Origin: a bacterium
Lineage (GTDB): Bacteria; UBA10199; 2-02-FULL-50-16; JAJFLM01
DNA length: 64,000 nt
Direction: 5' to 3'
Assembly (NCBI GenBank): GCA_965216315.1
Contig: CBDCFN010000016.1
Span: forward strand, 2,112,001-2,176,000
The position numbers and the translations under genes were made by a program. Position 1 is the first letter of the stretch; the number at the start of each line of letters is the position of its first letter. Shown here one piece after another: positions 980-61,664 of this stretch. Below the pieces are notes generated by a model. The model did not search any database, was not told the origin of the DNA, and was given only the letters and a program-made list of their open reading frames with translations.

Positions 980-1006
980 GAAACTTTTTATTTTCCACGT
1001 CGATGA
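980..1006 (+). promoter_or_regulatory. sigma28-like promoter, leaderless
   Basis: GAAACTTT-N11-GTCGATGA, ATG 7 nt downstream. Confidence 0.7.
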
Positions 1007-1013
1007 GAGCTCC

Positions 1014-1943
1014 ATGTCTGTACTCAGCCTCATCACATCAACGGCCCTCCAAACTTGTTTGGGCAGTCTCAGCCAGGCCTGGACCGACTCGACGACAAGT
1101 ACCCTCCCCGCTTATCAGACCGTCGCCGACCAAGCCGTAACCCATTTATCCTGGTTGAGTTTTTCCGAGCCCCAGCATTATGTGCGGTCAACGCAACGAC
1201 TGCTCCGGCGTGAACTGCAGGCCGACTCCGCGCCGAGTCATATTGATGAAGCGACGGCCATTCGTGACGGCCTCTCGCTGCTGCGCCTGATCGGCTTGGA
1301 ATGGGAGACGATTGATCAGCTCGTTCCCGGCGCCCATACTTTCTACGAAACACGCGCCTGTAGTTGGTACGCGGATAGTGCACCTGAAGTTCATTTTGGC
1401 TACCCCTGGGCCGAGCCCGAAGATGAAGTACTCAGCGTGGACACGCCCACCTTCGAGAGCAAAATGGACATTCAAAACGACCACCTCATCCTCAACCCAA
1501 TGACCGGCACCGGTGAAGAAGCGATTCGACTCGCAACACGTCATCCGGAAAGTTTCGTCCTCGCCTATGACATTAACCCGGATAGCATTGTTACAGGCGT
1601 TTCAACCCTGATCGCTACCGAACACCCTGATCCAAACATTACTTTCACGGTTCACGACGCCCATACAAGCTTGGCCCTGGCAGATCATTCGGTGAACCGA
1701 CTCGTAATCAACGGTTACTCAACTTTCGGCTTCTCCGATGCACAACTCGTCTCTTTCTTTGCCGATCAAGTCCGCATGCTTGCCTCCAACTCGCGTATCT
1801 GGATGGACTTTTTACCCTACCGCCAACCCAGCGTTGACAGCCACACCTTTTATCTGGAATTAGCAGCTCACGCCGCTGGCCGCAGACTTCAACGCCTTGA
1901 CCTGCCCGCTGAGCTTAATGCTTACGCCGGCGTTATCGAATAA
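1014..1943 (+). CDS. orphan N-terminus fused to a class I SAM methyltransferase-like domain
   Basis: [16 protein letters not shown] (motif I), VLAYDINP (motif II), FTVHDAH. Confidence 0.65.
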
Positions 1944-1989
1944 AGATAATTCTTGATCACTCATCGGAGATATGGTGGTTGATACCACC

Positions 1990-3232: not shown

Positions 3233-3259
3233 GAAACTTCCTCTCTTTTCAGCCGATAA
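3233..3259 (+). promoter_or_regulatory. sigma28-like promoter
   Basis: GAAACTTC-N11-GCCGATAA, ATG 10 nt downstream. Confidence 0.8.
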
Positions 3260-3269: not shown

Positions 3270-4505
3270 ATGACATCACCAATTTTGACTCAAGCATCAA
3301 TCTTTTTGTCCGGGGCCACGGCGATGACGGCCCTCTTAACCACTTCGTGCACGGGCGAAGAAAATCAAATGCATCCACCGACCGCGGTATCTTCGTTAAC
3401 CGCGACGCCCCAAGGTGTCTCGTATGAACGACGTTGCATTTCTGATGCAAGCTGCACAGAAGAGCAACGAGTCGCCGCCGTATCAGACTATTTGAGTGCC
3501 GTTTACGGCAATAATAATTCTTTCCAATATGATAATGTCCTCACTCCTGTTGAAGGAGCTCATGCAAAAACTTATGGACCGACTGTCAACCTCTCGCAGC
3601 TACCACAGTTGTTTCACCGGGCCCAGGGAAGTGCGCTACAATCCTTTATTTCGCCAGCTCAACCGGCACTCTGCAATAATTTGAGCCTCTGGCACCTCCT
3701 CAAGGGCAGTGACGCCTCTCTGGGCGCTGCCACCGCGATTGGCGGTGTCCATCACTGCTTTAGTCAATTCGCCACCATTTTCAATGCCGCCAAGGTAGAA
3801 CAAGAGATCGCTGCTAATCCGCAGGACTGGATCTTTTTTGTCGAGATCAGCCAGGAGATGGAGCACGCTAAAAAACAGGGAAAGGATGTCCGCAAGGATG
3901 AAGTCGCCCTGATCTATCAAATTGCTGATCGACTTAATATCCCTAAAGAAAATCCAGTCGTCCCATACAACAGTGAGCCGGTCATGAAAGCCCTGGAAGC
4001 CAAAGGAATCTCGCGAACCGAACAGGCCACGGCTTGGGTGGTGTTTCACCTCCTTACTGATATCACGAGCACTCTTGTTCAGCGAAAAGATTTCAAACAA
4101 AAACCACCCGCCCAACTTAAAAAGATGGCGTATGATATCCTCAAGAGTTATTTTGCGCCCGGCGCCGTAAGACACCCTGTCATCACAGGATCGTTGCAAG
4201 TGTATGGACTGAATGCCGACAGCTTTTATAAGGCCTGTCAGAACTTCATCAAACCTCGTCCCGGCGAATCAACAGGAGCGGCCCTAGACAGGATACAAAA
4301 GAAAACTACGGCCACAATGGAGCAAGGCACAAAACTCGCAACTCAGTTAACAGTTCAACACATTCAGGCCAAACTCAAACAACACGGCCGGAAACAGGCC
4401 CTCTATCAAATGGGCGTCATGAATGCCCCCGTATTGAAGCAGATATACAAAGACCTCAAAGCCGTTCCGCTGGTTGCAAACGCCCCGACAGCCCCGAAAA
4501 AATAG
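3270..4505 (+). CDS. hypothetical protein, possibly EreA/ChaN/TIKI-like fold
   Basis: 411 aa ORF with motifs IGGVHH, WIFFVE and ALYQMGVMN. Confidence 0.6.
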   Translation: MTSPILTQASIFLSGATAMTALLTTSCTGEENQMHPPTAVSSLTATPQGVSYERRCISDASCTEEQRVAAVSDYLSAVYGNNNSFQYDNVLTPVEGAHAKTYGPTVNLSQLPQLFHRAQGSALQSFISPAQPALCNNLSLWHLLKGSDASLGAATAIGGVHHCFSQFATIFNAAKVEQEIAANPQDWIFFVEISQEMEHAKKQGKDVRKDEVALIYQIADRLNIPKENPVVPYNSEPVMKALEAKGISRTEQATAWVVFHLLTDITSTLVQRKDFKQKPPAQLKKMAYDILKSYFAPGAVRHPVITGSLQVYGLNADSFYKACQNFIKPRPGESTGAALDRIQKKTTATMEQGTKLATQLTVQHIQAKLKQHGRKQALYQMGVMNAPVLKQIYKDLKAVPLVANAPTAPKK

Positions 4506-8701: not shown

Positions 8702-9820
8702 CTATGCAACAACACAGCGGAAACCCACATGGTAGTCGGTACTGTCCGGCAAGACATGATGCAGGCGGGCCGAAGCTTGTATCTCATCCCAGTTGCTATA
8801 CCAACATCCCCCCCTCAGGAGTCGCGCAATCCCTGTCTCTGGGCCGAACGGATCTCGTGCCACTAAACCGTTATAGTTCCATTGAAAACGATCCTCGACC
8901 CATTGCGACACCCCGCCCGCCATCCCCTTGAGCCCCGTAGCATTACTAGGCCCCCAATCAGCGCGGGCAGGAAGTTGTTCGTTATAATAGGCTTCGTTTT
9001 CATCCGTGTACCCGGAGGCCGTCCCATAAATCCGCCAACCATAGAGCGGGCGTTCATCGTTGATGGCGCGGTTAATTTCGTCTTGAGTCAGTGGCGCGAA
9101 ACTGTCCCCCGGCTGCGGTAATTGAGTCACTATAGACTCAAAGCGATCCGCAACAAATTCTTCAAGGACGTTGAGGGAATCCAGTTCGATGCCCTCTTCG
9201 TCCCTCAACAGCTGTCTCAAGTCGACCGCCGGCCCCCGCGCCGCGAATTCCCACTCCGCCTCCGTCGGAAGACGCCCACCGATCCAGTCCGCAAAGCCAC
9301 GCGCCTCAAACCAATTGAACATCAGCGCGGGTTGATCGGCTCCCAAAAAGGCGGCCGTCGTCATGCGGTAATTAGTTTCATCATCGACATCGACACCATC
9401 CTGATAATATTGGAAGACCTCCGTAAAATCGCGCCCCATGGGATCTTTTTTAAAGAGGCGGTCGCGCAACTGTTGTGGGGTCGGGACCAATTGGATCACC
9501 TCAGGATAAACGTGCTTTGCACCCGGTCTCATTCGATCAATCACCCGCTCCGCCGTCTCGGCTCGCGAAGCTCCGCGCACGATCTCCTGTACCTGACCCT
9601 CCGCCCCGAACAAGAACGCCCCATAGTGCTTATCCTGATGTGCTTTAAGGTAGGCATCCCGCTGCCGATTAGTTACAGGTGTTTCTTGCAGCTGAAAAGA
9701 AGAGACGGTCACATTGCGGATCGGCTGTTCCCAATAATGCCGGTTCGACCCCATCGGAAATGTCCCTCCGGAAATTGCAACCATGGATCCGCGTGCGATG
9801 CTAAGGAGTGATGCGGTCAT
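8702..9820 (-). CDS. FGE-sulfatase (SUMF1) domain protein with large insertions
   Basis: GGTFPMGS, ETPVTN, RLPTEAEWEFAARG, RGGCW, GFRC. Start reassigned to ATG 9820 from the promoter position. Confidence 0.85.
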   Translation of the reverse strand: MTASLLSIARGSMVAISGGTFPMGSNRHYWEQPIRNVTVSSFQLQETPVTNRQRDAYLKAHQDKHYGAFLFGAEGQVQEIVRGASRAETAERVIDRMRPGAKHVYPEVIQLVPTPQQLRDRLFKKDPMGRDFTEVFQYYQDGVDVDDETNYRMTTAAFLGADQPALMFNWFEARGFADWIGGRLPTEAEWEFAARGPAVDLRQLLRDEEGIELDSLNVLEEFVADRFESIVTQLPQPGDSFAPLTQDEINRAINDERPLYGWRIYGTASGYTDENEAYYNEQLPARADWGPSNATGLKGMAGGVSQWVEDRFQWNYNGLVARDPFGPETGIARLLRGGCWYSNWDEIQASARLHHVLPDSTDYHVGFRCVVA

Positions 9821-9827: not shown

Positions 9828-9854
9828 ATATCGGGGCGTAATGGAGGACGTTGC
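9828..9854 (-). promoter_or_regulatory. sigma28-like promoter, leaderless
   Basis: GCAACGTC-N11-CCCGATAT, ATG 7 nt downstream. Confidence 0.7.
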
Positions 9855-9938: not shown

Positions 9939-9965
9939 ACAACAAAGCCGCTTCAGGGCCGATGA
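9939..9965 (+). promoter_or_regulatory. sigma28-like promoter, leaderless
   Basis: ACAACAAA-N11-GCCGATGA, ATG 7 nt downstream. Confidence 0.65.
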
Positions 9966-9972: not shown

Positions 9973-10593
9973 ATGATTCAGAGCCTCCAATCGTCCTTAA
10001 TGGCACTCGGGTTTACACAGATGGCACTCATCAGTGGCCCCCAAGTGGACAGCCAGGCCTTCGTTTTAGTTGATGATCCCGGCGACTTAGGGGTCGACAT
10101 CAAGGAGTTGCCCATCGATACCTGGGTCAAACTCAGCGGTTATGAGGAATCCGACTATGATGCCAACCCCGCTATTCTTCGCATGGCTGGCATGCCCAAT
10201 ACTGAGGATACCCAGGCGATGTATCGTCAGGCCCGACGTTCCCTCCACGGCCCCGTGACTTGGGGACGCATCGACCGGCACGACCGCAATCAGCCCCCGA
10301 ATATCTTGAGTGTCCGGGTGAATAGGGATCGTCCGCAGCCCAATCTTACGCAGGGGTTAGCCGCAACCGTAAAAACCAGTGGGATGTATGGCAGTGAGAG
10401 TGTTGCCTGGAGCCTCTATGAGCGTTCCTTGGGCGTCAGCGCCACACGCGCCGCGCAACTCCTGTTGGATGCGGTCCAACGTGGCTGGAACACCAGTCCC
10501 AGTCAAACCTCTAATACACACATTTATCGCGTGTACAACGAACCGACGCTCTTCGCGAGTTTAACTGAGCTGCTCGGCGCTACAAGCATTTAG
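9973..10593 (+). CDS. hypothetical protein
   Basis: 206 aa ORF, no recognisable family. Confidence 0.7.
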   Translation: MIQSLQSSLMALGFTQMALISGPQVDSQAFVLVDDPGDLGVDIKELPIDTWVKLSGYEESDYDANPAILRMAGMPNTEDTQAMYRQARRSLHGPVTWGRIDRHDRNQPPNILSVRVNRDRPQPNLTQGLAATVKTSGMYGSESVAWSLYERSLGVSATRAAQLLLDAVQRGWNTSPSQTSNTHIYRVYNEPTLFASLTELLGATSI

Positions 10594-19135: not shown

Positions 19136-19163
19136 TTATCGGGTGTTGAATCGGCATCGTTGC
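19136..19163 (-). promoter_or_regulatory. sigma28-like promoter (12-nt spacer)
   Basis: GCAACGAT-N12-CCCGATAA. Confidence 0.5.
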
Positions 19164-32203: not shown

Positions 32204-32248
32204 GCTGATCACTCCTTCTGTTTTGTTCAAGACTATGGCTTAGATAGG

Positions 32249-47171: not shown

Positions 47172-47180
47172 GCTACCTCC

Positions 47181-49580: not shown

Positions 49581-49604
49581 GTCCCCAATTACTCCTCATG
49601 GAGG

Positions 49605-49631
49605 TTATCGGCGGAAATGCGGAAAAGTTCA
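49605..49631 (-). promoter_or_regulatory. sigma28-like promoter
   Basis: TGAACTTT-N11-GCCGATAA. Confidence 0.85.
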
Positions 49632-49678
49632 CAAAAAGTTAAATGATTTCAAATATTTAGTATTCAGTTGAATACAAG

Positions 49679-49727
49679 AAATCCCCTCGGATCCCTCCCT
49701 TTGAGAAAGGGAGGCTAGGAGGGATTT
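49679..49727. repeat. REP-like palindromic repeat
   Basis: CCTCCCTTT-GAG-AAAGGGAGG within AAATCCC...GGGATTT. Confidence 0.7.
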
Positions 49728-51400
49728 TTTAAAGCCAGTCTGAAACTCCGTAACTGCAAGAGCCGGACGGTGAGTCGCGCGCCTTCATTTTTCATGAAGG
49801 CGCGCTGCTCGGAGTTGAGATGGGACGGATGGATAAACTGATAACCGCCAGCGGGATTATCTTGGACGAGGCCCAAGGAACGTCCTTTATGTTCGAGTCG
49901 ACGCCGGACGCGCAAAAACTCGATCCGGGCATGGCGAGACATGAATCGTTTAAACGCCTTCATGTTACTAATCGTCCCTTTCGGGCTGATCATTTTAGTG
50001 ATATCATCGGCATCGCTGGCGTCGGGATGAAAGCCGGTATATTCCTTCACGAGTTCATACGCGCGTTTGATGTTTTTCTTGTTTTTGTCGTCTTGATAAA
50101 ATTCGCGCACCGAACGACGCACACCCTTCCAATCGATGGCCCATACGCCATTTTCGTTGCGCGTATTCTTCATGACAAGCGCGGTTAAATTCTGCCGCAT
50201 CGAGTCGCCAAACTGTTGGGACGCTTTGGTGAGTTTGTTTTGGATGCGGTCGAGATTCGCGTCGTAGTTCTTTTCGTAAGAACTGGAGACAGCCGATGCA
50301 ACCGTATCAATAGCGGTAATGAACATGCCGAAGGCGCTCGCCAAGAAACGACCGCCGTGCATCTCACTCCCCCGCTCCTGCAAATAGATCTGTTGACTCA
50401 AGCGGATCAGATCCCACTGGCGCCGTTCATCTCCTTTGAAAGCCAAACGACTGACGGCCCACAGCGCCCCGCGCGCCCCGAGATCAATCAAGCCAATCCA
50501 ACCGAGGGCCCGGGTCAAAACCGCGCCAACACGTAAGACCGCCGCCCCGCGCGAGGCTTGCAAGGCCGCCGAGGATTTAATTCCGAGGGCATGCGCCATC
50601 GTCGGCGAGACGGCGGCCAAGGCATAGGGCATCGAAGCCAGCGTCAGGCCGGCAAACTGGGTCACGGGAGAATTCAAATCCATGCCAGCCTTTTCCAACA
50701 GAAAATAAGACAACAACTGAAAGCCGTAGAAGGTCGGCATGTGCGCGAGCATCGCGCGCGGTCCCGTCGCGAAGACACCCAACTGATGCAATGCCATCGA
50801 CGCGAGATACACGCTGCCGAAAAGGGCCGGGATGCGCGCCTCTTCAGGGAGGAGGCCGTTGTCAATGAGGGACTTCAGTACAAAATGGTCATAGGCAACG
50901 ATAATACCCGCCGCCCCAACCATCCCGATGGTCAGACTCATCGGACTCGGGGGTCGAATCCCGGATGAGGCACCTGAAGGTCCCCCACCTGCGCTCCCCG
51001 GCCCACATTCAAGCGGTGTACTCTTAAAGAAATGAAAACGCGGCACCGTCACCCCTTCGGCCGTCACGGCCTGGGTCACCCGAAACGAGATCGGCAATTT
51101 TTGCGTAACGGCGAGTTGATAAAGACCGTGCAGATGGGGGCGTACTGAGGGCGGCAACTTCTTATAAAAATGCGTCAGGGAAAGGTCTTGATTCAGCGGC
51201 ACGGGCGTTGCCCCGCCGACGTACCAAAGCTCATTGGCAAAGAGTGAGATGGGATTGCGACGAAGAGGCGCGGCCGCCGGCGTATCGACTGAATTATAAT
51301 GATCAAGTCCGGGCGTACCGCCGCCGCAAGTCATCGACTCCCATTTGATTGTCGCTGCCGCGGCAGCGGACACACCGGACACCATACACACCGCACCCAT
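49715..51400 (-). CDS. array protein C (alpha)
   Basis: 561 aa from ATG 51400 (SD GGAGGTG), FRVTQAVTAEGV motif. Confidence 0.85.
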   Translation of the reverse strand: MGAVCMVSGVSAAAAATIKWESMTCGGGTPGLDHYNSVDTPAAAPLRRNPISLFANELWYVGGATPVPLNQDLSLTHFYKKLPPSVRPHLHGLYQLAVTQKLPISFRVTQAVTAEGVTVPRFHFFKSTPLECGPGSAGGGPSGASSGIRPPSPMSLTIGMVGAAGIIVAYDHFVLKSLIDNGLLPEEARIPALFGSVYLASMALHQLGVFATGPRAMLAHMPTFYGFQLLSYFLLEKAGMDLNSPVTQFAGLTLASMPYALAAVSPTMAHALGIKSSAALQASRGAAVLRVGAVLTRALGWIGLIDLGARGALWAVSRLAFKGDERRQWDLIRLSQQIYLQERGSEMHGGRFLASAFGMFITAIDTVASAVSSSYEKNYDANLDRIQNKLTKASQQFGDSMRQNLTALVMKNTRNENGVWAIDWKGVRRSVREFYQDDKNKKNIKRAYELVKEYTGFHPDASDADDITKMISPKGTISNMKAFKRFMSRHARIEFLRVRRRLEHKGRSLGLVQDNPAGGYQFIHPSHLNSEQRAFMKNEGARLTVRLLQLRSFRLALKNPS

Positions 51401-51443
51401 GAGCACCTCCATTTGTTTCGCACCTAATGGGCTGACTATTTAG

Positions 51444-51470
51444 TTATCGGCGGAAAATCGCGGAAGTTCT
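51444..51470 (-). promoter_or_regulatory. sigma28-like promoter
   Basis: AGAACTTC-N11-GCCGATAA. Confidence 0.85.
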
Positions 51471-51561
51471 CGAAGATTCGCAAAGCGATGCGCATTTCGT
51501 GGACAAATGAACACACTCTAGAAGGGAGCCAAGGGAAACCTGCGAAAATTGTCGTATGGAC

Positions 51562-52653
51562 TTAGATACCGCGGCGACGACGCTCACGGTCGCGATTGAT
51601 TTCGGTACGCGTGCGGAGATCGAAGCCGTTGTTCCGTCTGGCATCGACAAGGTCCTGGACGGCGCGACGTCGTAGCGTTGTTGAGCTGGCCTCGTGGGGA
51701 TAGCGCGCCCAGCGGTTGGAAAGCTCCTCAACCATAGAAAGCCGCGCTTCCATCGGCAGCTCTCTGAAACGAGGAACTTCATGGTTGAGCACGCGGAGCG
51801 CATGTTCGCCCGGGTTCTCTTGATGATAGTTGGCAACGATCAATTCCTGATAGATCGTAAAAATTTCCCCTTCGCTAAAGACGCGCGGCAGGGTTTCGCC
51901 ATTGGCCCCCGGAAGTTGGGGATTCAACTGATCATTGACCGCAAAGGCGCGGCGCATGACCTCACGCCGGGTCGATTCGTCGAGGTTGAGCAAAAGACTC
52001 TGCATATCCGGGTAACGGGCCTGCAACGTACTCGCTGTGACGTTAATCCCCGCTTGGTTGAGCAAAGGAACCAGCGCTTGATGGCGAATGGTCACGGGCA
52101 CCTCCACGCCAAAGGTATTCAGGCGGGTCGCGCGCATAATCGTTCGAATCGCCTCCAGATGATTGGAATCCTCCATCGTATGGGGACTCGGCAAGGTCGC
52201 GCCGTCACCACCGATAAAGGCACGGTCCAGATCCAAACAGACAAGATCTTCAGGACGAACCTCCGTCATGTCATAGGCCTCGGCCGCGGAATTCAGAAAA
52301 CCATCGGTCGGGTCCGTGTGATTATTCCGGCCTTCGCCATTGCCATTCCCGGAACTTCCCGCAACAATCACTCCACCCAACAGGACGGTTGAAGCCAGGA
52401 CGTTGCCGAAGGAAGAACCGCCATTGTCATCAACTGAAGAGCCGTTGTCCGGCGCTTCGCAGGTCAAGGTTGAATGAGGAGGGCCGCCGGCATCCGCCAA
52501 GAAACCTTCCGGTGCCGTGCATACCCCGCCATCGGCATCCGCCGTGCCATTCGTGTGCACGCTACTTGTTGTCGTATTGTCGTGAGTCGACGGCGTCTCG
52601 TCACAAGATAAAAACCAATTAATGACCGGGATGTCACACCATTCAACGCCCAT
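51562..52653 (-). CDS. array-embedded protein D, not obviously paralogous
   Basis: SD AGGAGG, Cys-containing low-complexity N-terminus, one hydrophobic helix. Confidence 0.8.
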   Translation of the reverse strand: MGVEWCDIPVINWFLSCDETPSTHDNTTTSSVHTNGTADADGGVCTAPEGFLADAGGPPHSTLTCEAPDNGSSVDDNGGSSFGNVLASTVLLGGVIVAGSSGNGNGEGRNNHTDPTDGFLNSAAEAYDMTEVRPEDLVCLDLDRAFIGGDGATLPSPHTMEDSNHLEAIRTIMRATRLNTFGVEVPVTIRHQALVPLLNQAGINVTASTLQARYPDMQSLLLNLDESTRREVMRRAFAVNDQLNPQLPGANGETLPRVFSEGEIFTIYQELIVANYHQENPGEHALRVLNHEVPRFRELPMEARLSMVEELSNRWARYPHEASSTTLRRRAVQDLVDARRNNGFDLRTRTEINRDRERRRRGI

Positions 52654-52724
52654 AAGTAGCCTCCTAATGATCACTCCAGGCGCACCCTCGTTAATAAGGG
52701 TCGCACCCTGAACTCCTCAATGGA

Positions 52725-52751
52725 TTATCGGCGGGAGCTGACAAAAGTTGC
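52725..52751 (-). promoter_or_regulatory. sigma28-like promoter
   Basis: GCAACTTT-N11-GCCGATAA. Confidence 0.88.
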
Positions 52752-52777
52752 TGAAAAATTACGGATTTTTGCGAAAT

Positions 52778-54751
52778 TTAGGATGCGCTCTTTTGGTGAG
52801 CGCGCTCTACCCCGAGAATCTGGCCCAACAAGAGGAGACGGAAGGCCTGGTTGCGCAAAGGCTGGATCTGCGTATTAAAGACGCGGCGCTGTGCCTCCGT
52901 CCAGGAGCTGGGGTGGACGAAGGCGTAACTGCCATCGGCCTGACGGGTCACCAAACCCGCCGGTTCGGCAAGCGCGTACATCTGCTTTTCAATGGTCTTC
53001 ATCCGCAGCATGGCGCGGCGCCATAGATGAACGGTGAGCCGTTGATGATCGGAGATGCTTCCCGTGTCGGCAGCGATCAGGCCCCGTATTACCTCGGCAT
53101 CGGAGGCGCGTCCGCCGGTATAGTCCGCGAGCATCTGATACTGATCGGTAATGTTCTTCCGATTGTTCCGATAGAAGGTACGGACTTCCGTCCGATACGT
53201 GTCCCAATTAACCGTCGGCCGAAAGGCGCGCATCGCCGCCGGCAGGTCATAGAGAATGTTACCACTGGCATCGCGGAGCGGATTGCCGGCGCTGTCACGT
53301 TGAATATAGCCGTTGAGATGTTCCTGATATTGGGGACCCACGTTGCGGATAAAGAAGTCGAGCAGGGTATCTTCGACCGACTGTCCAAAGCTCGCTGAAT
53401 CCCGCACCATCATGCGAATAATCCGGTCACGCTCGCTCTCCATAATGCCACGGGTCTCGGCACTGAGGGCCTCACTAACACCGGTTCCGGTCATCATGAT
53501 ATTGCCCATAAAGAGCGTCGAGATATTGCCGGTACTGAGGAAGCCCGCGCGATCGCCGGAGAGATCTTGTTCGCCGGTCATCCAATTGATGACATCCGTA
53601 TGCACGAGGCGGTTGGCCAGCTGATCGAGACGGTACTCGCGCTGGCTGCCTTCGTCCAAGGTCTTGCCGACACCCCAATAGATCGCGCCGATCGCCAGAT
53701 CCACTAAAGTGACGCCACCAATGATACCTCCCGCACCGCGTGCGAGGATGGCTCCGCCTCTTACCGCCCGACCTGCGAGGCCAATCCAGCGTGACGCCGC
53801 CACGGTCGCGAGCCGTCCGGTCGCGGCACTGGTTGCCAAGCGGCCACCGACCCACTCGAGACCCTTGAGGCCCATCACGGCGCCGACACCGGCGGTAATA
53901 CTGCCGTACTCGTTCTGTTGGGTCCCGATCTCGACGCCGGCCGCATGCAAGAGCAACGCCGACATCATCTGGTACCCGACGATGGGGGGAATGCTCCGCC
54001 CCAGCGTAGCCATGCTGCCCCGTTGAACGAGGCCCAGATCGGCAAGGGCCTTGTGCCCCAACATCGCCGTCGAAAAGAGGATCGGACCGCGCGCCCCATC
54101 GGGAATCGTCCCGTCGGCCACTGCGGGCCTGAGCAGACGGTCATCGATGTAAAAAAGAAAGAGCAGTTGTCCACCCGCCGACAGTCCATGAACCGCCGTC
54201 GAACGCAGCGCGGTATGCACGGGACCCAAGGGAGGTTGCGGGCCGCTCCCACCGCCGGTCGTCGCGAGCGAGCGCGGCACCAACGAGGGCAAAGGCGTAT
54301 CGGCCGTAGCGGCGCCGGCACGCATATAGATAAACTCAAACTGCGGAACCGTCGCACCGGGCGCCCCATTGGGTGTCGCGACCATCTGATAGCGCACCCC
54401 GACGTTGGCGAGCGAAACCCCATTGCCGGATAACGAAAGCGCGTAGGGGCGCAGGTACGAGGGAAGCAGATGAGCGGAATCCTGTAACGAGTAGGTCTTG
54501 CCCGGCTCAAAGTTATTGAGGGCCGCCTGATCGGCCGCGGCGTTGGCGTCGGCAAAATAGGCCGTCGGACCCACGTCGTAGGCACTGTCCATAAAGGGGA
54601 AACTCGCCGTACTGGAATAGTTCGGATCCACGGGACCCGTCAGGACAGGATCGCTGCTCGCATCCGTCACCGGTAGTGAACAGGTCAACGGCGCTGTTGG
54701 CGCAGAAAAAGTGGGTTCGGCCCCACAGGACTGAATTGTCGAATCGCACAT
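52778..54751 (-). CDS. array protein E (beta)
   Basis: 657 aa, AGVEIGTQQNEYGSI, paralogous to G. Confidence 0.85.
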   Translation of the reverse strand: MCDSTIQSCGAEPTFSAPTAPLTCSLPVTDASSDPVLTGPVDPNYSSTASFPFMDSAYDVGPTAYFADANAAADQAALNNFEPGKTYSLQDSAHLLPSYLRPYALSLSGNGVSLANVGVRYQMVATPNGAPGATVPQFEFIYMRAGAATADTPLPSLVPRSLATTGGGSGPQPPLGPVHTALRSTAVHGLSAGGQLLFLFYIDDRLLRPAVADGTIPDGARGPILFSTAMLGHKALADLGLVQRGSMATLGRSIPPIVGYQMMSALLLHAAGVEIGTQQNEYGSITAGVGAVMGLKGLEWVGGRLATSAATGRLATVAASRWIGLAGRAVRGGAILARGAGGIIGGVTLVDLAIGAIYWGVGKTLDEGSQREYRLDQLANRLVHTDVINWMTGEQDLSGDRAGFLSTGNISTLFMGNIMMTGTGVSEALSAETRGIMESERDRIIRMMVRDSASFGQSVEDTLLDFFIRNVGPQYQEHLNGYIQRDSAGNPLRDASGNILYDLPAAMRAFRPTVNWDTYRTEVRTFYRNNRKNITDQYQMLADYTGGRASDAEVIRGLIAADTGSISDHQRLTVHLWRRAMLRMKTIEKQMYALAEPAGLVTRQADGSYAFVHPSSWTEAQRRVFNTQIQPLRNQAFRLLLLGQILGVERAHQKSAS

Positions 54752-54786
54752 ACGCTACCACCTTTTACACCCGTTCTCCAATTTGG

Positions 54787-54813
54787 TTATCGGCGAGGAT
54801 TCGCAAGAGTTGC
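54787..54813 (-). promoter_or_regulatory. sigma28-like promoter
   Basis: GCAACTCT-N11-GCCGATAA. Confidence 0.88.
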
Positions 54814-54854
54814 GGGGAATTTTGCGGATTTTCGCAAAGACTTGGAAAACGGGC

Positions 54855-56825
54855 TTAAGCCGGCTGATGTGCCTTGATAATGACCTCCAGGGCCTTCAAG
54901 CGGCTTTTGAGCCTCACGCCTTCACTTGGCTCCCGTCCCTCCCCGACGAGGAAGGTCCGCTGGGCCGGCGTCAGCTCGTTGATGGACGTGAAGCTGACCG
55001 CCACGATCTTGTCGCCGACCCGCTTGCTCAGGCCCAGCTCCAGTTTGCGCTGTTCCCACTGCTGCTGGACCCGTTTGAGCTCGGCCGTGGCCTGTGCCTG
55101 GAGTTCCTTATCGAGGCGTTCGTTGTTGATCGCGCTACCGCCCTTGCCCATAACGGAGTAACCGAGCTGGATATCAGAATCGCGGTGTTTGGTGAGTTTG
55201 AGTAGGTACTGGCTGTTCTCGAATTGCTCTTTGGTCCAGCTCCCGTAGCGACCCCGCAAGCGTCGTTGGAATTCGAACGCGTCAAAGGTGGGTGTTTTGT
55301 CCCGAACGTCCACGGTGGAAAGCGCGACCTCGAGCATATTATCCTTGATATCCAAGGAAAAGACCCGGCTTGCGTCAGTCCATTCATTCTCCCGCATCGA
55401 AATCGCCCCATAGTCTCCGTAAAGGGCTTCGTAACAATCATCGGAGAAAATGGTCGGAATCGTCCACATGCCTTTGCTGACGTTGCTAAAGACATTCCCC
55501 ACATGACCGAGTACGGGTACCTCCGAATTCGACTCATGGACCACTGAATCAAAGGCCGCCTGCAGGAGGCGGTAATGAGGACTCCCGTCATCCGCCACCC
55601 AATCCACGACGGCGCCGCCGAGGGCATCGCCCAACCAGACCGCCAGCGCGGCATTGGCCGCCTGCAAGGTCCCGCCCATGACCTTGGCTCCGGTGCTGCC
55701 GGTGATGCCGGTCCAACCCGGGGCCCGAAAGATACGGCCAAGGCGCCCGGCGTTTAAGGACCACCCACTCGATGCCATTAACTCGCCATTCGTCGTCAGC
55801 GCCCGCGTCGATTGCCACGCGGCGTTAAAGGCCGGGTAGTCGGCGGCCAGGGCTGGGAGGACCTTGGTATAGGTATAAAGGGAGAGACCGAGGCTTCCAT
55901 AGGTATTGGCGTCCGTCCCCATTTCCACGCCCGCGGCATCGAGGCCGTAAGCGGCCGCAAGATTGAGCCCGGTAAACATGGGCATCCCTTCGAGGGCCGG
56001 ACCCCACTGAAAATTGGGAATCATGCCGAGGCGCCGAGCGCCTTCAAATAACAACAGACTGCCACCCGCGCGCGCCCGGCCTTGATAAGGCTCGGGCAGG
56101 TCGAGCTTGGCGATGGAATAGTCAACCATCGCGACAATCCCGACGATACCCCCGACCTGATAGACGGTCGTCAACGGTCCGGGCTGCTGCGGCGTCGGTT
56201 TAGGACCGCCGGTCTGGACCAGGCTCTTGCCTTCCGGCATAAAGACCTTAACCGGCGCCTTGCCCATTGAAGTGAAATCTCCTTTCGGGGTCGTCCCAAA
56301 GAAATTTTTCAGCAGCGCCGATTTGTGTAGGAAAAGGATCGACGGCACCGCCGCCGCCCCGGCGACCTCCTTCATCTCGTAGCGAAAATAGATGTCTTCT
56401 TCGTCACGATACTCCCGCATCGCCTCCTGCATCGGAGTCGGCAGCTGACTAAAGTTGGCTTTGAGCGAGTAGGTCTGGCCGGCCTGGAGTTTCCCCGTCA
56501 TCGCGGCAATCTCGGCCTGGAGTTGGCCGGTTTGTTGGTCTTGGTTCCACGCATCGATCTCTTCGAGCGGAATCGTATCCGCCGTGCGCGGCGCCTTATT
56601 ATTCAGCAGTTCCTGGTGCCGTTCCCGCGTCGCCTTCATCGTCACGGCAAGTTGATCAACGGGATTCTGCAGCGGTACGGCGGGAACGGAATCCTTTGGA
56701 CCCGTATAACTATCGAGTTTGACGACGGGTCCGCCCTCGTAAGCCGGAGCTTCGCAGGCGGGTACAATAAAGGGATTGTCCGGATTGGGGTTTTTGGAGC
56801 TAATTGGTCGACACTGGTCGGTCAT
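54855..56825 (-). CDS. array protein F (gamma)
   Basis: 656 aa, paralogous to H (DGSPxYRLxxAAFDS, KLTKHRDS). Confidence 0.85.
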   Translation of the reverse strand: MTDQCRPISSKNPNPDNPFIVPACEAPAYEGGPVVKLDSYTGPKDSVPAVPLQNPVDQLAVTMKATRERHQELLNNKAPRTADTIPLEEIDAWNQDQQTGQLQAEIAAMTGKLQAGQTYSLKANFSQLPTPMQEAMREYRDEEDIYFRYEMKEVAGAAAVPSILFLHKSALLKNFFGTTPKGDFTSMGKAPVKVFMPEGKSLVQTGGPKPTPQQPGPLTTVYQVGGIVGIVAMVDYSIAKLDLPEPYQGRARAGGSLLLFEGARRLGMIPNFQWGPALEGMPMFTGLNLAAAYGLDAAGVEMGTDANTYGSLGLSLYTYTKVLPALAADYPAFNAAWQSTRALTTNGELMASSGWSLNAGRLGRIFRAPGWTGITGSTGAKVMGGTLQAANAALAVWLGDALGGAVVDWVADDGSPHYRLLQAAFDSVVHESNSEVPVLGHVGNVFSNVSKGMWTIPTIFSDDCYEALYGDYGAISMRENEWTDASRVFSLDIKDNMLEVALSTVDVRDKTPTFDAFEFQRRLRGRYGSWTKEQFENSQYLLKLTKHRDSDIQLGYSVMGKGGSAINNERLDKELQAQATAELKRVQQQWEQRKLELGLSKRVGDKIVAVSFTSINELTPAQRTFLVGEGREPSEGVRLKSRLKALEVIIKAHQPA

Positions 56826-56869
56826 GTGCGCACACCTCTAATAGGGTGCACCCATGAGCTCCATTTCTG

Positions 56870-56896
56870 TTATCGGCGGGGATTCGCAAGAGTTGC
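56870..56896 (-). promoter_or_regulatory. sigma28-like promoter
   Basis: GCAACTCT-N11-GCCGATAA. Confidence 0.88.
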
Positions 56897-56930
56897 GGAG
56901 AATTTGACGAAAATTCGTAAAATCTTGAAA

Positions 56931-56987
56931 GACCTCCCCTAGCCCTGAACCCCCTCTCCTTACGAAGGAGAGGGCTGGGGAGAGGTC
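56931..56987. repeat. REP-like palindromic repeat
   Basis: CCCTCTCCTT-ACG-AAGGAGAGGG within GACCTC...GAGGTC. Confidence 0.75.
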
Positions 56988-58786
56988 CTCGGCGTCGGCG
57001 CCAGCGCCTGCATCGCGAGCCGCATCCGCTGAATTTCCATAATCTGGGGCATAATCCGGGTCCGATAGGCCGTTTGTTGCGCCTCGGTCAGATGCTCGGG
57101 GCGCCGGATCGCGAAGCGTCCGTCCGGTAGCTCCTCTGCCAGGCCCCAAGCCACCGCCTGTTGATTCATCTGCTGCTCCGCAGCGCTCAAACGCGCCTGA
57201 GCACGACGATAGAGATGCTGCCGGAGTCGCCCCTGATTACGAATCTGCCCGAGACCGGTGATATTGAGGCGGATGTTCTCACCAATCGGTGCGCGTCCCC
57301 CAATGTACTCCTCTAAGAAGTCATAGTGGCTCTGAATACCGGTTCGGTTGCCCCGGTAGAAGGTAACCACCCCGGTCTCGACTGAATCCCAATTGATTTG
57401 GGAACGAAAACTCGTCAAGGCCGCCTGCGCGCCGGTCGTTGAGTGACTGGCAAGATGGCGCTGAAATTGGGTCCCTGCCTGGCTCAAAATTTGATTGAAA
57501 AGCACGTCCTCAACCTGGGTCCCAAAGGCATCCGAATCGGCTGCCAAACGCCCGATAATCTGCTCCCGACCGCCATCGAGATCGCGGTCAAAGTCGTCGG
57601 AGGCTGCAGCCCCAATCCCACGACCCAAGCGGAAAATATTGCCTAGAAAGAGTGAGGGCCAAAAACCCATCGATTCATTATTGATGATGTCATCGGCTAA
57701 CCCGGTCAGCCGGTACTCACGCGCCACCGCGTCGTCAGAGATCATCTCACCACCGGCCCAGACCACGCCGCCAATCAGCAGATCCGCCAGGGTCACCCCC
57801 CCGACAACACCCGCCACGCCGCGTCCCGCCACGCTCAGACCTCGTAGGAGCCGTGCCCCGCGGGCCATCTGAACGACACCGTTCACTTCCACGGTCGGTA
57901 ACGCCGCAGCAACCCGGCCCATGGTATGAAGCGTCAAGGCCGTCCCGGCAGCACCAACGATGCTCCCGTATTCATTGGCCTGCGTCCCGACCTCAACACC
58001 GGCATAATGGAGCAGCATCATCGCCATGACCTGATAGCCGACGAAGGGCGGAATACTCGCACCGATCTGCCGCAAGGGCGTTCGTTGAATCAGTCCGGTG
58101 CGGACAATGGCCTCGTTCATTAAGAGCACACTCGAGAGCAAGAGCGGGCCACGGGCACCATTCGGAATGGTCCCATCCTCGACGAGCGGGCGGAGTAAAT
58201 AATTATCGATCGCTAGAATGGCCACGATCTGCCCGGTTGCCGCGGTAATCTGGGCGGTCGTCGTGTGAATATTCGGGGCCGGTTCGGGAGCCGGTCCACC
58301 CGGCGCGGCTCCTCCGCGCGGGGTCGCCGCTGCTGGAACTTCAACCTCGGTGCTGGGTCCGCTCATCTGCATGATGTGGAGACGCGGTGGACCCACGACC
58401 CCTTCCGGTGTCACGGTGCGCGTCACTTGAAAACCGATGCGTTCCAGTGGAGTCCCGCCGGAGACCGCTAGTGCGGTATAGGCATCGACAAAGGCTGGCA
58501 GCAGATGACCGGATTCCGCCATCGAATAGGTCCGCCCCGCTTCAAAGGCGTCGACAGAGATTTCGCTCGGACGAGACCGATCCTGAAACAGACTCAGCGG
58601 AGGCTGTGCCGGAGCTGCCGGCGGGGCCTGCAGGGCGCTCAGATCGTCAGCGATAAAAAAGACGTCGCCCGCTTGCTGAACTGCTTCGGGGCTTGGATTC
58701 GGGTTTTCGGTCGGGGTCGGTGCGCCTGGGATGACACTTGCAGGGGTGCTCGTGTCGACACAGCATTGAGTTGTTGGATTACACAT
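56960..58786 (-). CDS. array protein G (beta)
   Basis: 608 aa, AGVEVGTQANEYGSI. Confidence 0.85.
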   Translation of the reverse strand: MCNPTTQCCVDTSTPASVIPGAPTPTENPNPSPEAVQQAGDVFFIADDLSALQAPPAAPAQPPLSLFQDRSRPSEISVDAFEAGRTYSMAESGHLLPAFVDAYTALAVSGGTPLERIGFQVTRTVTPEGVVGPPRLHIMQMSGPSTEVEVPAAATPRGGAAPGGPAPEPAPNIHTTTAQITAATGQIVAILAIDNYLLRPLVEDGTIPNGARGPLLLSSVLLMNEAIVRTGLIQRTPLRQIGASIPPFVGYQVMAMMLLHYAGVEVGTQANEYGSIVGAAGTALTLHTMGRVAAALPTVEVNGVVQMARGARLLRGLSVAGRGVAGVVGGVTLADLLIGGVVWAGGEMISDDAVAREYRLTGLADDIINNESMGFWPSLFLGNIFRLGRGIGAAASDDFDRDLDGGREQIIGRLAADSDAFGTQVEDVLFNQILSQAGTQFQRHLASHSTTGAQAALTSFRSQINWDSVETGVVTFYRGNRTGIQSHYDFLEEYIGGRAPIGENIRLNITGLGQIRNQGRLRQHLYRRAQARLSAAEQQMNQQAVAWGLAEELPDGRFAIRRPEHLTEAQQTAYRTRIMPQIMEIQRMRLAMQALAPTPRTSPQPSPS

Positions 58787-58834
58787 ATCGGTTCATCTCC
58801 ATATGAACCATGCGCAGTATCCACTACGATCTAG

Positions 58835-58861
58835 TTATCGGCGACGCTTCGCAAGAGTTGC
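58835..58861 (-). promoter_or_regulatory. sigma28-like promoter
   Basis: GCAACTCT-N11-GCCGATAA. Confidence 0.88.
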
Positions 58862-58902
58862 GGAAAATTTGACGAAAATTCGCAAATTATCGAAAAACCG
58901 CC

Positions 58903-61569
58903 CTAATACTCATCATTGATCGTAAATTCGACCGTATAGCTATTTCCGTCCAGGGAACGCGGAAAATCATCGACGTTCCACAGATCGCCGTAATAGCTGC
59001 GTGAGAGATCGATATGGGCCCGCAGGGCCGACTCGCGGTCCCCCGCCCCGATGATATCGTAGCTCTGAAAGCTCCCCGTACCAGAGATATTGAGGCGTAT
59101 CGTCACCGGTTCCCACGTACACTCCGTCCGGCGATTGAGGATGTCGGCGTAAAGCTCCTCGGCGACAGTCTCGTACTCGGCCCGCGGCCCGGCCACGGCA
59201 TCGTTAAAGCGCGCCTGCACCCCATCGACAATGGATTGCAGGGCCAGCTGGCGTGAACCCAGCACAATATTTTCAGTGGGTTCATTCGTCCCATCCCCAA
59301 AGAGAAAGGCATATTGGGATGGGTTGAGCTCATCGGCGGAGCGGAATTCAATCATCCTCAACTCGCTCCCCTCGCGGTAGGCCAGCCCTAATTCAATCAG
59401 CCGGTTTTCCCGCGCCTGCGTCGCCGTTCTGAGCTGGGCGGTCGCGTTATCATAGAGCGTCCGATTAAGCCGGTCTTCCTGGTCAATCTCGCCATCCCGG
59501 TCGAGCGCGTGATAGATGTTGTTGATGTGGCTGTCGCGATGCTTGGTCAGCTTCATCAAGGCATAGAGATTATCCTGCTCATCTGAACTGAGCGAACTCA
59601 TGTAACGCTGCAGGGCCCCCTCGAAGGCCTCGTAGTTGAAGGTCAAGGGCTGCGCGTTATAATCAATCGAACTCAACGCCAGTGATACCAAGTTATTCTC
59701 GGTGTTGACGGCAAAGTTCCGGGCCGCATCGACCCATTCACGCTCACGCATCGCAATCCCGCCGTTGGGGCCATAAAGCGGGTTTTCATCGGCGAACCAG
59801 GACACGGGTTCGGCGACGATCGTCCAGATCCCCTGCGTCAAACTCGGAAAGATCCCACCGACGACACAACCATCTTCCTGCACCAAGGAGTCAAAAGCCG
59901 CCTTCATCAAGCGATACTCGGGACTGCCATCGTTGGCCGCCCAATCGACGAGAACACCACCGAACATATCGCCGAGCATGACGGCGAAAAAGGCCGACGC
60001 CGCCTGGAGGCTGCCGCCGAGCACACGGGTACCGAGACTGCCGTTGATGCCGGTCAGGTAACCCGCCCCGCCGGCGCTCGCACCGGCATTCGCCCAAGAG
60101 ATCGTCGCCGAGGTACTCGAGGCCCAAGCCCAACCTTCAGTCCCGAGCAACTGCCCGAGGCGACCCAAGGGCTGAAGACTTCCCCGCGACGACGCCAAGA
60201 GCTCACCCGTCGTTGAAATGCCGCGCGTCGAATGCCAGGCCGTATTGAAACCAGCAGAATTATTGGCCAGCCACGGAACAACCGTCGTATAGGTTGCCGC
60301 CGAGGCCCCGAAGCTTCCATAGGTGTTCAAGGGCGTTCCGATCGGCGCCCCGCCGGCATCGAACAAGTAACTAAAGCCGTAATTCATCCCGGTAAACAAC
60401 GGCATGCCTTCGAGACCCGCAGCCCACTGAAAAGGCAGGAGACCGGTACGCCGCAGCCCCTCAAAACCGAGGACAGTGCCAACCGCACGCGCCTCCCCCT
60501 GATACTCCTCGGGGATGTCTAAAGCGATGACGCTGGCATCGACAACCATCAAGACGGCCGTCATCCCGGCCGCCTGTTGCAGACCGACTAGCGGTTGAAA
60601 CCCACCGCCGCCGCCACCATTACGCGGGCCTCCCGTTCCTTCCAATGAACGCCCTTCCGGCAACCAAACGCGAATCGGCGCCCGACCGATATTCGGGGGC
60701 CGCAACAGCCCGCCCAGGACCCCTTCCCCGGTCATCATGGACGTATTGGAACCTCCTAAGAGGCCGCGCCCGCGCGTCAAAAACAGGAACGGAACCATCG
60801 CGCCGGCGACCTCGTGCAGCTCAAAGCGGAAAGAGAGCTGTTCATCATCCCGATAACCTTCGAGCGAGGCCTGCATCGAACGCGGTAAGATATCAAAATT
60901 CTCGGCCAGGTTGTGGTCGACCCCTTCTGACAAGACGGACGTCATGTAATCGATGTCGGACTGCAACTCTTGCTGGCGGCGCCGTTCGTGCGTCGCCGCC
61001 ACGACCTCGGGAGAGAGCGATGTCGCGGTAAAGGACCCGGCATTATCGAGAATGCCCGCGATGCGTTCACGCTCGGCCAACATCTGGGTCTCAAGCTGAT
61101 CGAGCATGGCGGGAGTAATGATCGCGGGCTCTTCATAGGTCAGGTGGAGATGACCGTCTTCCCCCATCACGAATTGATAAGAACCACTCAGGGCCGGATC
61201 CCAGCTCGGTTCGTCGCCGAGAAAGAGGCTGCCTCCTGCGTCCAGAGATGTCCGGATCAACTGGCCGTCTTCCGTCAGAGTGACACGGTATTGAACATCG
61301 CCAAAATAAGGGGCAGCCGCGTCATTATGCCAGGCCAACAAACTGTCGGTCGTGACATTGGCTGGCAATTCCGGACCAACAAACAGGGTCGGGGTTTCCG
61401 TTGCATCATAACGGATAAGATTGAGCGGCGCTCCGTTGCCGAGAACAACCTCGTCAAAATGGCTTCGCTCCTCAGGATTTAGGACAAAAGTGGGATTAAC
61501 GACAACGTTGGAAGTCGTGTCTTCAACAACACGGCACCGGCCGTTGGCGTCACAGATCAAATCAACCAT
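58903..61569 (-). CDS. array protein H (gamma, with N- and C-terminal extensions)
   Basis: 888 aa from ATG 61569 (SD GAGGAG). Confidence 0.85.
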   Translation of the reverse strand: MVDLICDANGRCRVVEDTTSNVVVNPTFVLNPEERSHFDEVVLGNGAPLNLIRYDATETPTLFVGPELPANVTTDSLLAWHNDAAAPYFGDVQYRVTLTEDGQLIRTSLDAGGSLFLGDEPSWDPALSGSYQFVMGEDGHLHLTYEEPAIITPAMLDQLETQMLAERERIAGILDNAGSFTATSLSPEVVAATHERRRQQELQSDIDYMTSVLSEGVDHNLAENFDILPRSMQASLEGYRDDEQLSFRFELHEVAGAMVPFLFLTRGRGLLGGSNTSMMTGEGVLGGLLRPPNIGRAPIRVWLPEGRSLEGTGGPRNGGGGGGFQPLVGLQQAAGMTAVLMVVDASVIALDIPEEYQGEARAVGTVLGFEGLRRTGLLPFQWAAGLEGMPLFTGMNYGFSYLFDAGGAPIGTPLNTYGSFGASAATYTTVVPWLANNSAGFNTAWHSTRGISTTGELLASSRGSLQPLGRLGQLLGTEGWAWASSTSATISWANAGASAGGAGYLTGINGSLGTRVLGGSLQAASAFFAVMLGDMFGGVLVDWAANDGSPEYRLMKAAFDSLVQEDGCVVGGIFPSLTQGIWTIVAEPVSWFADENPLYGPNGGIAMREREWVDAARNFAVNTENNLVSLALSSIDYNAQPLTFNYEAFEGALQRYMSSLSSDEQDNLYALMKLTKHRDSHINNIYHALDRDGEIDQEDRLNRTLYDNATAQLRTATQARENRLIELGLAYREGSELRMIEFRSADELNPSQYAFLFGDGTNEPTENIVLGSRQLALQSIVDGVQARFNDAVAGPRAEYETVAEELYADILNRRTECTWEPVTIRLNISGTGSFQSYDIIGAGDRESALRAHIDLSRSYYGDLWNVDDFPRSLDGNSYTVEFTINDEY

Positions 61570-61637
61570 GACACTCCTCGACCCTCTCACACACACGCAT
61601 TCAGCCAACCCAAGGCTTTACACATACACAGCCTAAG

Positions 61638-61664
61638 TTATCGGCCTCGGCTTACGAAAGTTGC
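61638..61664 (-). promoter_or_regulatory. sigma28-like promoter
   Basis: GCAACTTT-N11-GCCGATAA. Confidence 0.88.

Follow-up and report, generated by a model that had tools for sequence, protein, structure and literature searches.

What reads the two-box motif that recurs upstream of orphan genes in a 64,000-nucleotide (nt) stretch of a UBA10199 bacterium (assembly GCA_965216315.1, contig CBDCFN010000016.1, positions 2,112,001 to 2,176,000; hereafter the window), and what would the genes so marked be for? A preliminary description of the window had proposed that a divergent FliA/WhiG-family sigma factor runs a programme of orphan genes. In the current study, computational analysis of the window, its genome and related loci led to the verdict that the motif defines a real, phylum-wide variant sigma-28 regulon which is tied to an early-branching injectisome. 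Very probably, the motif serves as the promoter recognised by a sigma-28 paralogue whose gene lies within a non-flagellar, secretin-less, Myxococcus-type type III secretion system (T3SS) cluster. This reading is carried by the motif and its positional bias, the phylum-wide co-occurrence of motif and sigma, the synteny of the sigma gene, the change in the recognition helix of its product and a motif site before a needle-like gene, each of which is established at the level of sequence. The orphan-gene programme of the preliminary description is thereby placed in a context that it had missed, the sigma lying inside a T3SS cluster and having a needle-like gene as its best-conserved target.

The twelve sites originally described, and two looser copies, were all found in the window, each pointing at the gene downstream; both looser copies differ from the proposed 11-nt spacer in having 12 nt (19136) and 13 nt (35495). 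The -10 box is exactly GCCGATAA, as had been given, at eight of the twelve sites, the other four reading GTCGATGA, CCCGATAT, GCCGATGA and ACCGATAG, and the corrected consensus is RCAAC(WTT)-N11(12,13)-NNCGATAA. A weight matrix trained on genes that all lie outside the window returned (C/A)RCAAC(T)(T)(T)-N11-(G)(C)CGA(T)(A)(A), in which CAAC and CGA are nearly invariant and TTT (58–62%) and GC (52–56%) are weak. Taking at least 14 bits as a site, eleven of the twelve qualify, as do 14 positions in the window overall, compared to a mean of 1.24 (maximum 5) in 100 blockwise dinucleotide shuffles. The predicted promoter sites and associated features are as follows:

980–1006, forward strand: site GAAACTTT-N11-GTCGATGA, 20.3 bits, with an ATG 7 nt downstream (leaderless-like).
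1014–1943, forward strand: marked gene with a charge-free N-terminus and a methyltransferase-like domain (E 1e-5, under the cut-off).
1742–1768, forward strand: extra, intragenic site ACAACTCG-N11-GCCGATCA, about 200 nt before a DUF3829 gene, 17.2 bits; may be a chance match.
3233–3259, forward strand: site of orphan gene 3270–4505, 21.4 bits, with an in-frame ATG at 3270 (leaderless-like).
9828–9854, reverse strand: site of a gene from about 9820 to 8702 with a charge-poor N-terminus and an FGE-sulfatase domain, 15.5 bits, in-frame ATG at about 9820.
9939–9965, forward strand: site divergent from that at 9828, of orphan gene 9973–10593, 17.2 bits, ATG 7 nt downstream.
19136–19163, reverse strand: site with a 12-nt spacer, of orphan gene 18624–19094, 16.4 bits.
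19972–19998, reverse strand: site of an orphan gene from 19964 to 19290, 22.9 bits, ATG 7 nt downstream (19964).
35495–35523, forward strand: site with a 13-nt spacer, of orphan 35588–37303 with a lipoprotein-like signal peptide, 15.8 bits.
45525–63727, reverse strand: nine orphan genes in tandem, of which eight are paralogues by sequence comparison and one (51562–52653) is unrelated.
49605–49631, reverse strand: site of 47181–49580 and probably also of 45525–47171, 10 nt behind it, 12.0 bits.
51444–51470, reverse strand: site of 49715–51400, 14.1 bits.
52725–52751, reverse strand: site of 51562–52653, 25.8 bits.
54787–54813, reverse strand: site of 52778–54751, 24.6 bits.
56870–56896, reverse strand: site of 54855–56825, 24.6 bits.
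58835–58861, reverse strand: site of 56960–58786, 24.6 bits.
61638–61664, reverse strand: site of 58903–61569, 26.3 bits.

At the level of the genome, in which a dicodon-scored open reading frame finder called 2594 genes with approximate start positions, the two-box matrix converged on 240 sites (193 with a spacer of 11 nt, 27 with 12, 19 with 13 and one with 10). Genome-wide matches numbered 286, 94 and 79 at spacers of 11, 12 and 13 nt, as against 39–65 at each spacer of 7–10 and 14–17 nt, and 281 genes carry a site of at least 14 bits. The preliminary description had made its proposal dependent on a genome-wide bias in position and orientation, and this bias is strong: of 364 matches of at least 14 bits, 271 are in the sense orientation no more than 150 nt from a gene start and 11 are in antisense only, where about 8% would be expected. 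Some circularity affects this count, the matrix having been trained on upstream regions; the shuffle comparison, the spacer controls and the ATG positions given next are free of it. In-frame ATGs peak 6–10 nt past the -10 box (15, 27, 11, 14 and 17 at these positions as compared to mostly 1–7 elsewhere), which coincides with the expected transcription start site and is thus promoter-like behaviour. Such an ATG is present in 92 of the 281 marked genes, five of them in the window (at sites 980, 3233, 9828, 9939 and 19972), and these 92 genes are predicted to produce leaderless messages. It is nearly certain, as judged from these features, that the motif acts as a promoter. The array promoters do share extra flanking sequence, which fits duplication and would also suit a transcription-factor operator or a repeat copied together with duplicated genes; however, the presence of two boxes at fixed spacing and in a single orientation before approximately 280 unrelated genes, the ATG peak at 6–10 nt and the retention of the motif in 87 genomes and in other phyla render such an origin extremely improbable.

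The genome (2.96 Mb, 98% complete) contains five sigma-70 family genes (PF04542), which from their sequences and family matches encode RpoD, an RpoH-like factor, two extracytoplasmic function (ECF) sigmas and one FliA-like sigma (G000:C16:350583–351410; C16 denotes contig coordinates hereafter). The last of these is the divergent FliA/WhiG-family factor that had been postulated: NCBIfam FliA_WhiG and WhiG are its best family matches, six of six matches in the Protein Data Bank (PDB) are of the WhiG/FliA type, and in a phylogenetic tree this KSW-type sigma is sister to flagellar FliA. Its score of 133 bits against TIGR02479, where the cut-off is 189.6, speaks against a straightforward assignment. 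As the preliminary description had suggested, the DNA-binding regions of this FliA paralogue were inspected. Region 2.4 is of the FliA type, RIKGAIYDGLR aligning with RIRGAMxDExR of WhiG/FliA, and region 4.2 is changed, its helix reading KSWTSRLH where WhiG/FliA have ESRVSQ(I/L)H. No variation is seen at K225, S226, W227 and R230 across all 120 close homologues, and the tryptophan of the helix is kept in 139 of 150 distant representatives. Retention of region 2.4 together with a changed recognition helix predicts a kept -10 and a changed -35 box, and a TAAAG -35 is not enriched at any spacing in the genome. Region 2.4 would thus still read the sigma-28 -10 box (CGATAA), with the helix SKSWTSRLH reading GCAAC at the position where FliA reads TAAAG, and we hold with high confidence that this sigma reads the motif. 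Genomes of family f21 (G080 and G078; loci L077 and L078) carry a second, fast-evolving KSW-type copy.

ECF promoters have an AAC...CGT/CGA geometry that resembles GCAAC-N16-CGA. The invariant bases of the motif are indeed AAC and CGA, and an ECF gene located 1.5 kb before the window has GCAACTTT-N11-GCATCTAA upstream (C16:2109888–2109914, about 2.1 kb before the window), with the same -35 box and the CGA core replaced. If an ECF sigma were the reader, one would be expected wherever the motif occurs, yet this expectation failed for four motif-bearing genomes (G008, G038, G039 and G072; 95–99% complete), which keep 39, 28, 30 and 57 strict sites, respectively, and in which the sole PF08281 match is the T3SS sigma. 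In addition, neither ECF gene of the present genome has a scoring site upstream and the motif accompanies the KSW-type sigma into Myxococcota loci, so that recognition by an ECF sigma appears very improbable.

The KSW-type sigma is also distinct from the flagellar FliA of the phylum. Among the 87 phylum genomes that are at least 80% complete, flagellin was detected in ten, none being evident in the other 77. Nine flagellated genomes were examined and possess a second, ordinary FliA with an ESR[IV][SC]Q helix, which forms a separate clade (support 99/97). The GCAAC site is absent from the flagellin upstream regions of these nine (best score 6.1 bits), where T(A/C/T)A(A/G)G-N15/16-CCG(A/T), a pattern drawn from the same sequences, occurs in eight of nine as compared to 0.17 in shuffles. 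Seven flagellin promoters have TCCGT at -10, paired with Q or R after RIRG/RVRG in region 2.4, and one has GCCGAT, the corresponding FliA having S at that position. The two sigmas therefore seem to be separated at both boxes, albeit on the basis of nine related genomes, which are few.

The sigma gene is flanked by sctJ and a FliG-like gene, after which come sctL, N, O, Q, fliO, R, S and T; upstream lie sctV and an FHA-domain sctD-like gene, and SctU is encoded apart at C16:805026. SctV, SctN and SctR score over their family cut-offs, and SctS, T, J, L and Q are present but under theirs. SctV passes the non-flagellar model (806 > 692) and fails that of FlhA (698 < 772), and searches of this genome for flagellin and Flg_bb_rod gave no match, hook genes not being among the queries. 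The arrangement is conserved, as in 47 loci of relatives the FliG-like gene stands beside the sigma in 43, sctL in 40 and sctN in 39, most of the others ending early, and the sites of the cluster recur at equivalent places.

The sigma is present in all 87 phylum genomes, and the strict motif occurs 6–82 times per genome as compared to 0–2 times for the reversed pattern; these genomes represent one clade and not 87 independent tests, which lessens what their co-occurrence can contribute to the reading. More distant homologues were followed in the best 80 of 543 metagenome loci, of which 27 are at least 6 kb long, and T3SS core genes are found in 20 of these 27. Sense-strand sites in the distant loci number 22 at a spacer of 11 nt and 18 at 12 nt, as against 0–5 at nine other spacers. 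A needle-like gene is present in 13 distant loci and is preceded by a site in seven; among the other six, three are cut by the start of the contig. In one distant locus, L224, the needle-like protein and SctJ are identical to Myxococcus qinghaiensis records, the gene order is small gene, needle-like gene, TPR gene, small gene, sigma, sctI and sctJ, and GGCAACTGG-N11-GACGATAA precedes the needle-like gene. The homologue cluster of the L224 needle-like protein includes MXAN_2434 of M. xanthus DK1622, the gene with which the T3SS* of that species starts, and we infer from L224 that DK1622 would possess the MXAN_2434 promoter and the cluster sigma as well.

The most conserved of all sites is that before the needle-like gene in relatives: it is present in 23 of the 24 loci with enough upstream DNA (three of 27 being too short), with a 13-nt spacer in 22, and is never found on the reverse strand. 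The gene encodes 150–210 amino acids (aa), with a Gly/Ser-rich N-terminus and a conserved C-terminal stretch of 45 residues. When a profile of 21 such C-termini was compared to the PDB, the top ten of 18 matches were T3SS needle-complex chains (best 7y6c_F, E 3.3e-4), PrgI and MxiH appearing at E 0.06–0.4, and a wider needle-family profile again placed needle chains first (E 2.1e-4). Yersinia and Chlamydia T3SSs share an E-F-G gene order, and the gene following the needle-like one, a weak match to the needle chaperone CdsG (E 6.7e-8, under the cut-off), would suit that order. Several observations weigh against a needle identity: the Pfam needle model is matched by one of 21 family members, NCBIfam returned no needle match for the family, the sole Pfam match of MXAN_2434 is a weak one to T3SS_needle_F (E 0.017), the long Gly-rich N-terminus is unlike known needles, and the C-terminus is modelled as a single long helix instead of the SctF hairpin.

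Such observations would be expected if the T3SS were truly needleless, the gene under the 13-nt-spacer site encoding a second inner-rod-like protein or another early substrate, and delivery reaching the periplasm only. The C-termini of rods and needles are alike, the model lacks a hairpin, a secretin was not found, and the accessible text of Abby and Rocha (PMC3459982) reports no SctF, secretin or translocon in Myxo systems. Against this, a separate SctI-like gene follows the sigma in L224 (Pfam T3SS_basalb_I, E 5.8e-5), the profile ranks needle chains and not rod chains first, the next gene is CdsG-like, and one look-alike cluster in the ESM Atlas (score 0.90) carries PF09392 on 11% of its members. 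On balance, the conserved gene probably encodes the needle subunit, and a needleless apparatus is regarded as doubtful. In the window, positions 31152–32902 on the reverse strand hold three paralogous genes of 140–178 aa, each preceded at 45–47 nt by a sigma-54 box of its own. Their products have a Gly-rich N-terminus and a conserved C-terminus rich in Met/Gln, a layout like that of secreted filament-like subunits, and they match neither the needle profile nor Pfam.

The route across the outer membrane is a further point against the overall reading. The only secretin candidates are GspD, in a type II secretion operon, and one weak match of 253 aa, and no translocator family was matched, TPR chaperone-like genes flanking orphans 10–12 kb after sctT. 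Two regions of the contig deserve mention in their own right. At C16:342281–344567 (reverse strand), a PilW-like TPR protein is encoded together with a protein of 347 aa that matches TolB_N/FlgO faintly, a pair that could possibly serve as a pilotin or as an outer-membrane ring replacing the secretin. At C16:362938–372364, a candidate translocon region, four paralogous orphans of 460–611 aa (two with a motif site, two with sigma-54 boxes) precede two TPR chaperone-like genes and a gene of 298 aa whose matches to needles and rods are faint.

The regulatory arrangement proposed for this system resembles that of flagellar late genes, in that sigma-54 would turn on the sigma gene, whose product would then transcribe the SctF-like needle gene from the 13-nt-spacer site and approximately 280 scattered genes, mostly from sites with an 11-nt spacer. 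A sigma-54 box lies upstream of the sigma gene here and in 16 of 40 relatives, and in none on the reverse strand, which makes it reasonably likely that sigma-54 acts upstream of the sigma gene. Directly before the latter is a small gene (C16:350010–350369, 119 aa), the second gene behind a site, whose position is kept from UBA10199 to Myxococcus. Across relatives it encodes 99–148 aa with a variable N-terminus and a helical C-terminus, a size and layout that are FlgM-like, and no PDB match was obtained; a role as an anti-sigma factor of the FlgM kind is tentatively suggested. The sigma-54 regulon itself is large, 71 genes having a TGGCA-N-TGC box upstream as compared to 19 on the reverse strand, and includes many orphan and secreted proteins.

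Regarding the products of the regulon, the preliminary description held that only orphan or non-flagellar genes are marked, all with unrecognisable N-termini. Most marked genes in the window are orphans, the exceptions being the FGE-sulfatase domain in 8702–9820 (E 7e-38) and the methyltransferase-like domain in 1014–1943. The enrichment test that it advised was performed on 130 of 174 marked genes in the 39 site-richest stretches and 72 of 144 first-in-operon controls from the same stretches (sequences longer than 1000 aa being truncated at residue 1000, and counts made by hand from tables): a Pfam match at E ≤ 1e-15 was obtained for 21 of 130 marked genes as against 48 of 72 local controls, and for 35 of the 130 at E ≤ 1e-6. 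Orphans are thus enriched, and 'only' is too strong, as ordinary genes, among them panD, ribBA and bioB, follow a minority of the sites; some sites of this kind will be chance matches. The seven consecutive array genes from 47181 to 61569 have a site each, and several DUF4423 genes carry one.

Type III substrates typically have uncharged, Ser/Thr-rich N-termini. Residues 2–20 are free of charge in 92 of 272 marked proteins as compared to 75 of 2055 others under the same start-calling, and many of these N-termini end in LAA/LAS; LAS occurs within the first 40 residues in 41 of 254 marked proteins and 43 of 1921 others, mostly ending at residues 17–21. A strict leader is present in 50 of 272 marked genes, and by spacer class in 49 of 221 (11 nt) and in 1 of 27 and 0 of 23 (the other two spacers), the 13-nt class leaning towards signal-peptide proteins (9/24 vs 14/225) and T3SS parts. 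Amongst the 35 marked genes with a Pfam domain, 21 have at most one charged residue at positions 2–20, and the domains behind charge-poor N-termini are of bacterial type: histidine kinases, RelA/SpoT, GGDEF, adenylate cyclase-AAA, Ser/Thr kinase, PFK, RtcB and a phage-type lysozyme. Since such N-termini are typical of type III substrates, much of the regulon is read as T3SS cargo, many products probably being substrates with an uncharged N-terminal export signal; we would give an even chance to the proposition that this T3SS exports a large share of the regulon. Sec-type signal peptides in 27 of 281 marked proteins (by a crude rule) weigh against that reading, and the Sec substrates and housekeeping genes imply that the regulon does not equal the effector set. 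Among unmarked genes, an uncharged N-terminus does not go along with a higher promoter score below the threshold.

Alternatively, the sigma may be a general developmental or life-stage regulator with the T3SS as one client, most marked genes having functions inside the cell or on its surface, and their N-terminal feature not serving as an export signal; both readings agree on the identity of the sigma. Such a role would account for the lipoproteins, Sec substrates, DUF4423 regulators, PilZ and LysM proteins and housekeeping genes in the regulon and for the low share of strict leaders, and a precedent exists in Bdellovibrio, where FliA drives 92 of 140 attack-phase promoters (PMC3627812). Nevertheless, the gene for the sigma lies within the T3SS cluster in UBA10199 and Myxococcota alike, many of the charge-poor N-termini are on cytoplasmic enzyme domains, and leader-bearing genes without a site of their own lie in an operon behind one in 7 of 16 cases, compared to 101 of 2039 others, leaving the general regulator a minority possibility. 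If cargo is injected, the target cell might be bacterial, for which we put the chances at somewhat below even. A search for ankyrin repeats found none. Host myristoylation was rejected as a signal, Gly2 occurring in 27 of 281 marked and 138 of 2289 other proteins and MGxxxS/T in 3 and 14. No phage-sheath match indicative of contractile injection was found, VipB of type VI secretion not being among the searches.

The tandem array of the window comprises one orphan family of eight, namely six of the seven consecutive genes with sites together with those at 45525 and 61814. The paralogues are of 548–888 aa and mostly helical, with a Gly/Ala-rich, weakly hydrophobic middle; hydrophobic segments number at most two, all weak, per protein, and two of the eight have none. 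Homologues occur in 15 of 90 phylum genomes, with a site of at least 15 bits in nine of 18 copies examined. A protein database search with one array protein retrieved one homologue besides itself and the PDB sequence search was negative. Its mostly helical model (predicted local distance difference test score 76, predicted template modelling score 0.54) gave no Foldseek match at E ≤ 0.001, Atlas matches below 0.9 and a best VIA Z of 7.1, over a two-helix stretch; this lack of a fold match does not show that the fold is new. A pore-forming or translocator function would be a guess, and most array proteins lack an uncharged leader, which does not favour their export. An imperfect palindrome (GCGAA/ACGAA-N2-TTCG/TCCG) is located about 10–25 nt upstream of array -35 boxes (54815–54845, 56898–56925, 58863–58890 and 61666–61695, reverse strand) and could represent either an operator or a trace left by duplication. 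From window position 63864 onward, and past the end of the window, lies a further array (C16:2175864–2185583) whose five members are close paralogues; every one of them has a strong site, and several start with Met-Gly-Cys. Elsewhere in the window, 33807–35469 (forward strand) holds a DUF692 (MbnB/TglH/ChrH) and DUF2063 pair, a known peptide-modification module.

Scattered effector genes marked by a single promoter box are familiar from HrpL of Pseudomonas syringae and BtrS of Bordetella, which are encoded in T3SS loci; these are group-4 (ECF) factors, whereas the present sigma belongs to group 3 (the sigma-28 family) and has a regulon of approximately 10% of the genome. Chlamydia, which is not flagellated and has an early-branching T3SS, has likewise retained a sigma-28, but with a TAAAG -35 box and a very small regulon, as opposed to GCAAC and approximately 280 genes here. 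The parallel with Bdellovibrio drawn in the preliminary description holds as an analogy and not as the same promoter, the attack-phase motif of B. bacteriovorus being TTAAG-N16-CCGATA (Karunker et al. 2013, PMC3627812). The flagellar late regulon of FliA and the regulon of Bdellovibrio FliA share with the present one the sigma family, the -10 box, the box spacing and control of a filament subunit, and that of Bdellovibrio is also large and composed mostly of non-flagellar, uncharacterised genes (PMC3627812); they differ in the -35 box (TAAAG/TTAAG, here GCAAC), in the helix (ESRVSQ, here KSWTSR) and in that the gene here lies in a non-flagellar T3SS cluster.

The T3SS* of M. xanthus (MXAN_2434-2464), as far as it is set out in the accessible text of PMC3459982, PMC10433427 and PMC12075869, has in common with UBA10199 the export apparatus, SctN/L/Q, SctD/J/I, LcrH-like chaperones and the lack of a secretin, to which FliO can be added (PMC12248157). 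In L224 of Myxococcus, the sigma is surrounded by the same genes and the needle-like gene is again preceded by the site; the order differs, in that the sigma precedes sctI-sctJ there and follows sctJ in UBA10199. A partnership with the Kil pilus would not apply here because GspE is the only ATPase of the Tad or type IV pilus kind that was found in the genome. In the accessible text of PMC3459982, PMC10433427 and PMC12075869, T3SS* is described as needleless and neither a sigma nor a promoter is mentioned. In the literature searched, neither the promoter nor the needle candidate was described; the sigma or MXAN_2434 may already be annotated in subscription papers (Thiery et al. 2022 and Konovalova et al. 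2010 among them) or in supplements, which lay outside that search.

Based on the findings of this study, a broader view can be put forward tentatively: the sigma-28-to-filament circuit may have persisted in early-branching injectisomes, rewired to a different -35 box, MXAN_2434 may be the needle of the T3SS* of Myxococcus that has been called 'needleless', and UBA10199 may use the same machine to inject at least 100 proteins, including bacterial-type signalling enzymes (RelA/SpoT, histidine kinases, GGDEF proteins and adenylate cyclases) and lysozyme, into bacteria, with cargo that could be found by promoter box and leader. The accessible portions of PMC10433427 and PMC12075869 present the T3SS* of M. 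xanthus as required for prey lysis, as having no needle and as having effectors that are not known; for this model organism, the analysis offers a needle candidate (MXAN_2434), a candidate regulator in the cluster and a motif with which to scan for substrates. For a whole uncultured and mostly non-flagellated phylum, it offers a promoter code that yields a list of candidate secreted proteins. If the proposal is true, the view that SctF was lost in Myxo systems, as expressed in the accessible text of PMC3459982, would be revised, and the flagellar late-gene circuit would have outlived the transition from flagellum to injectisome.

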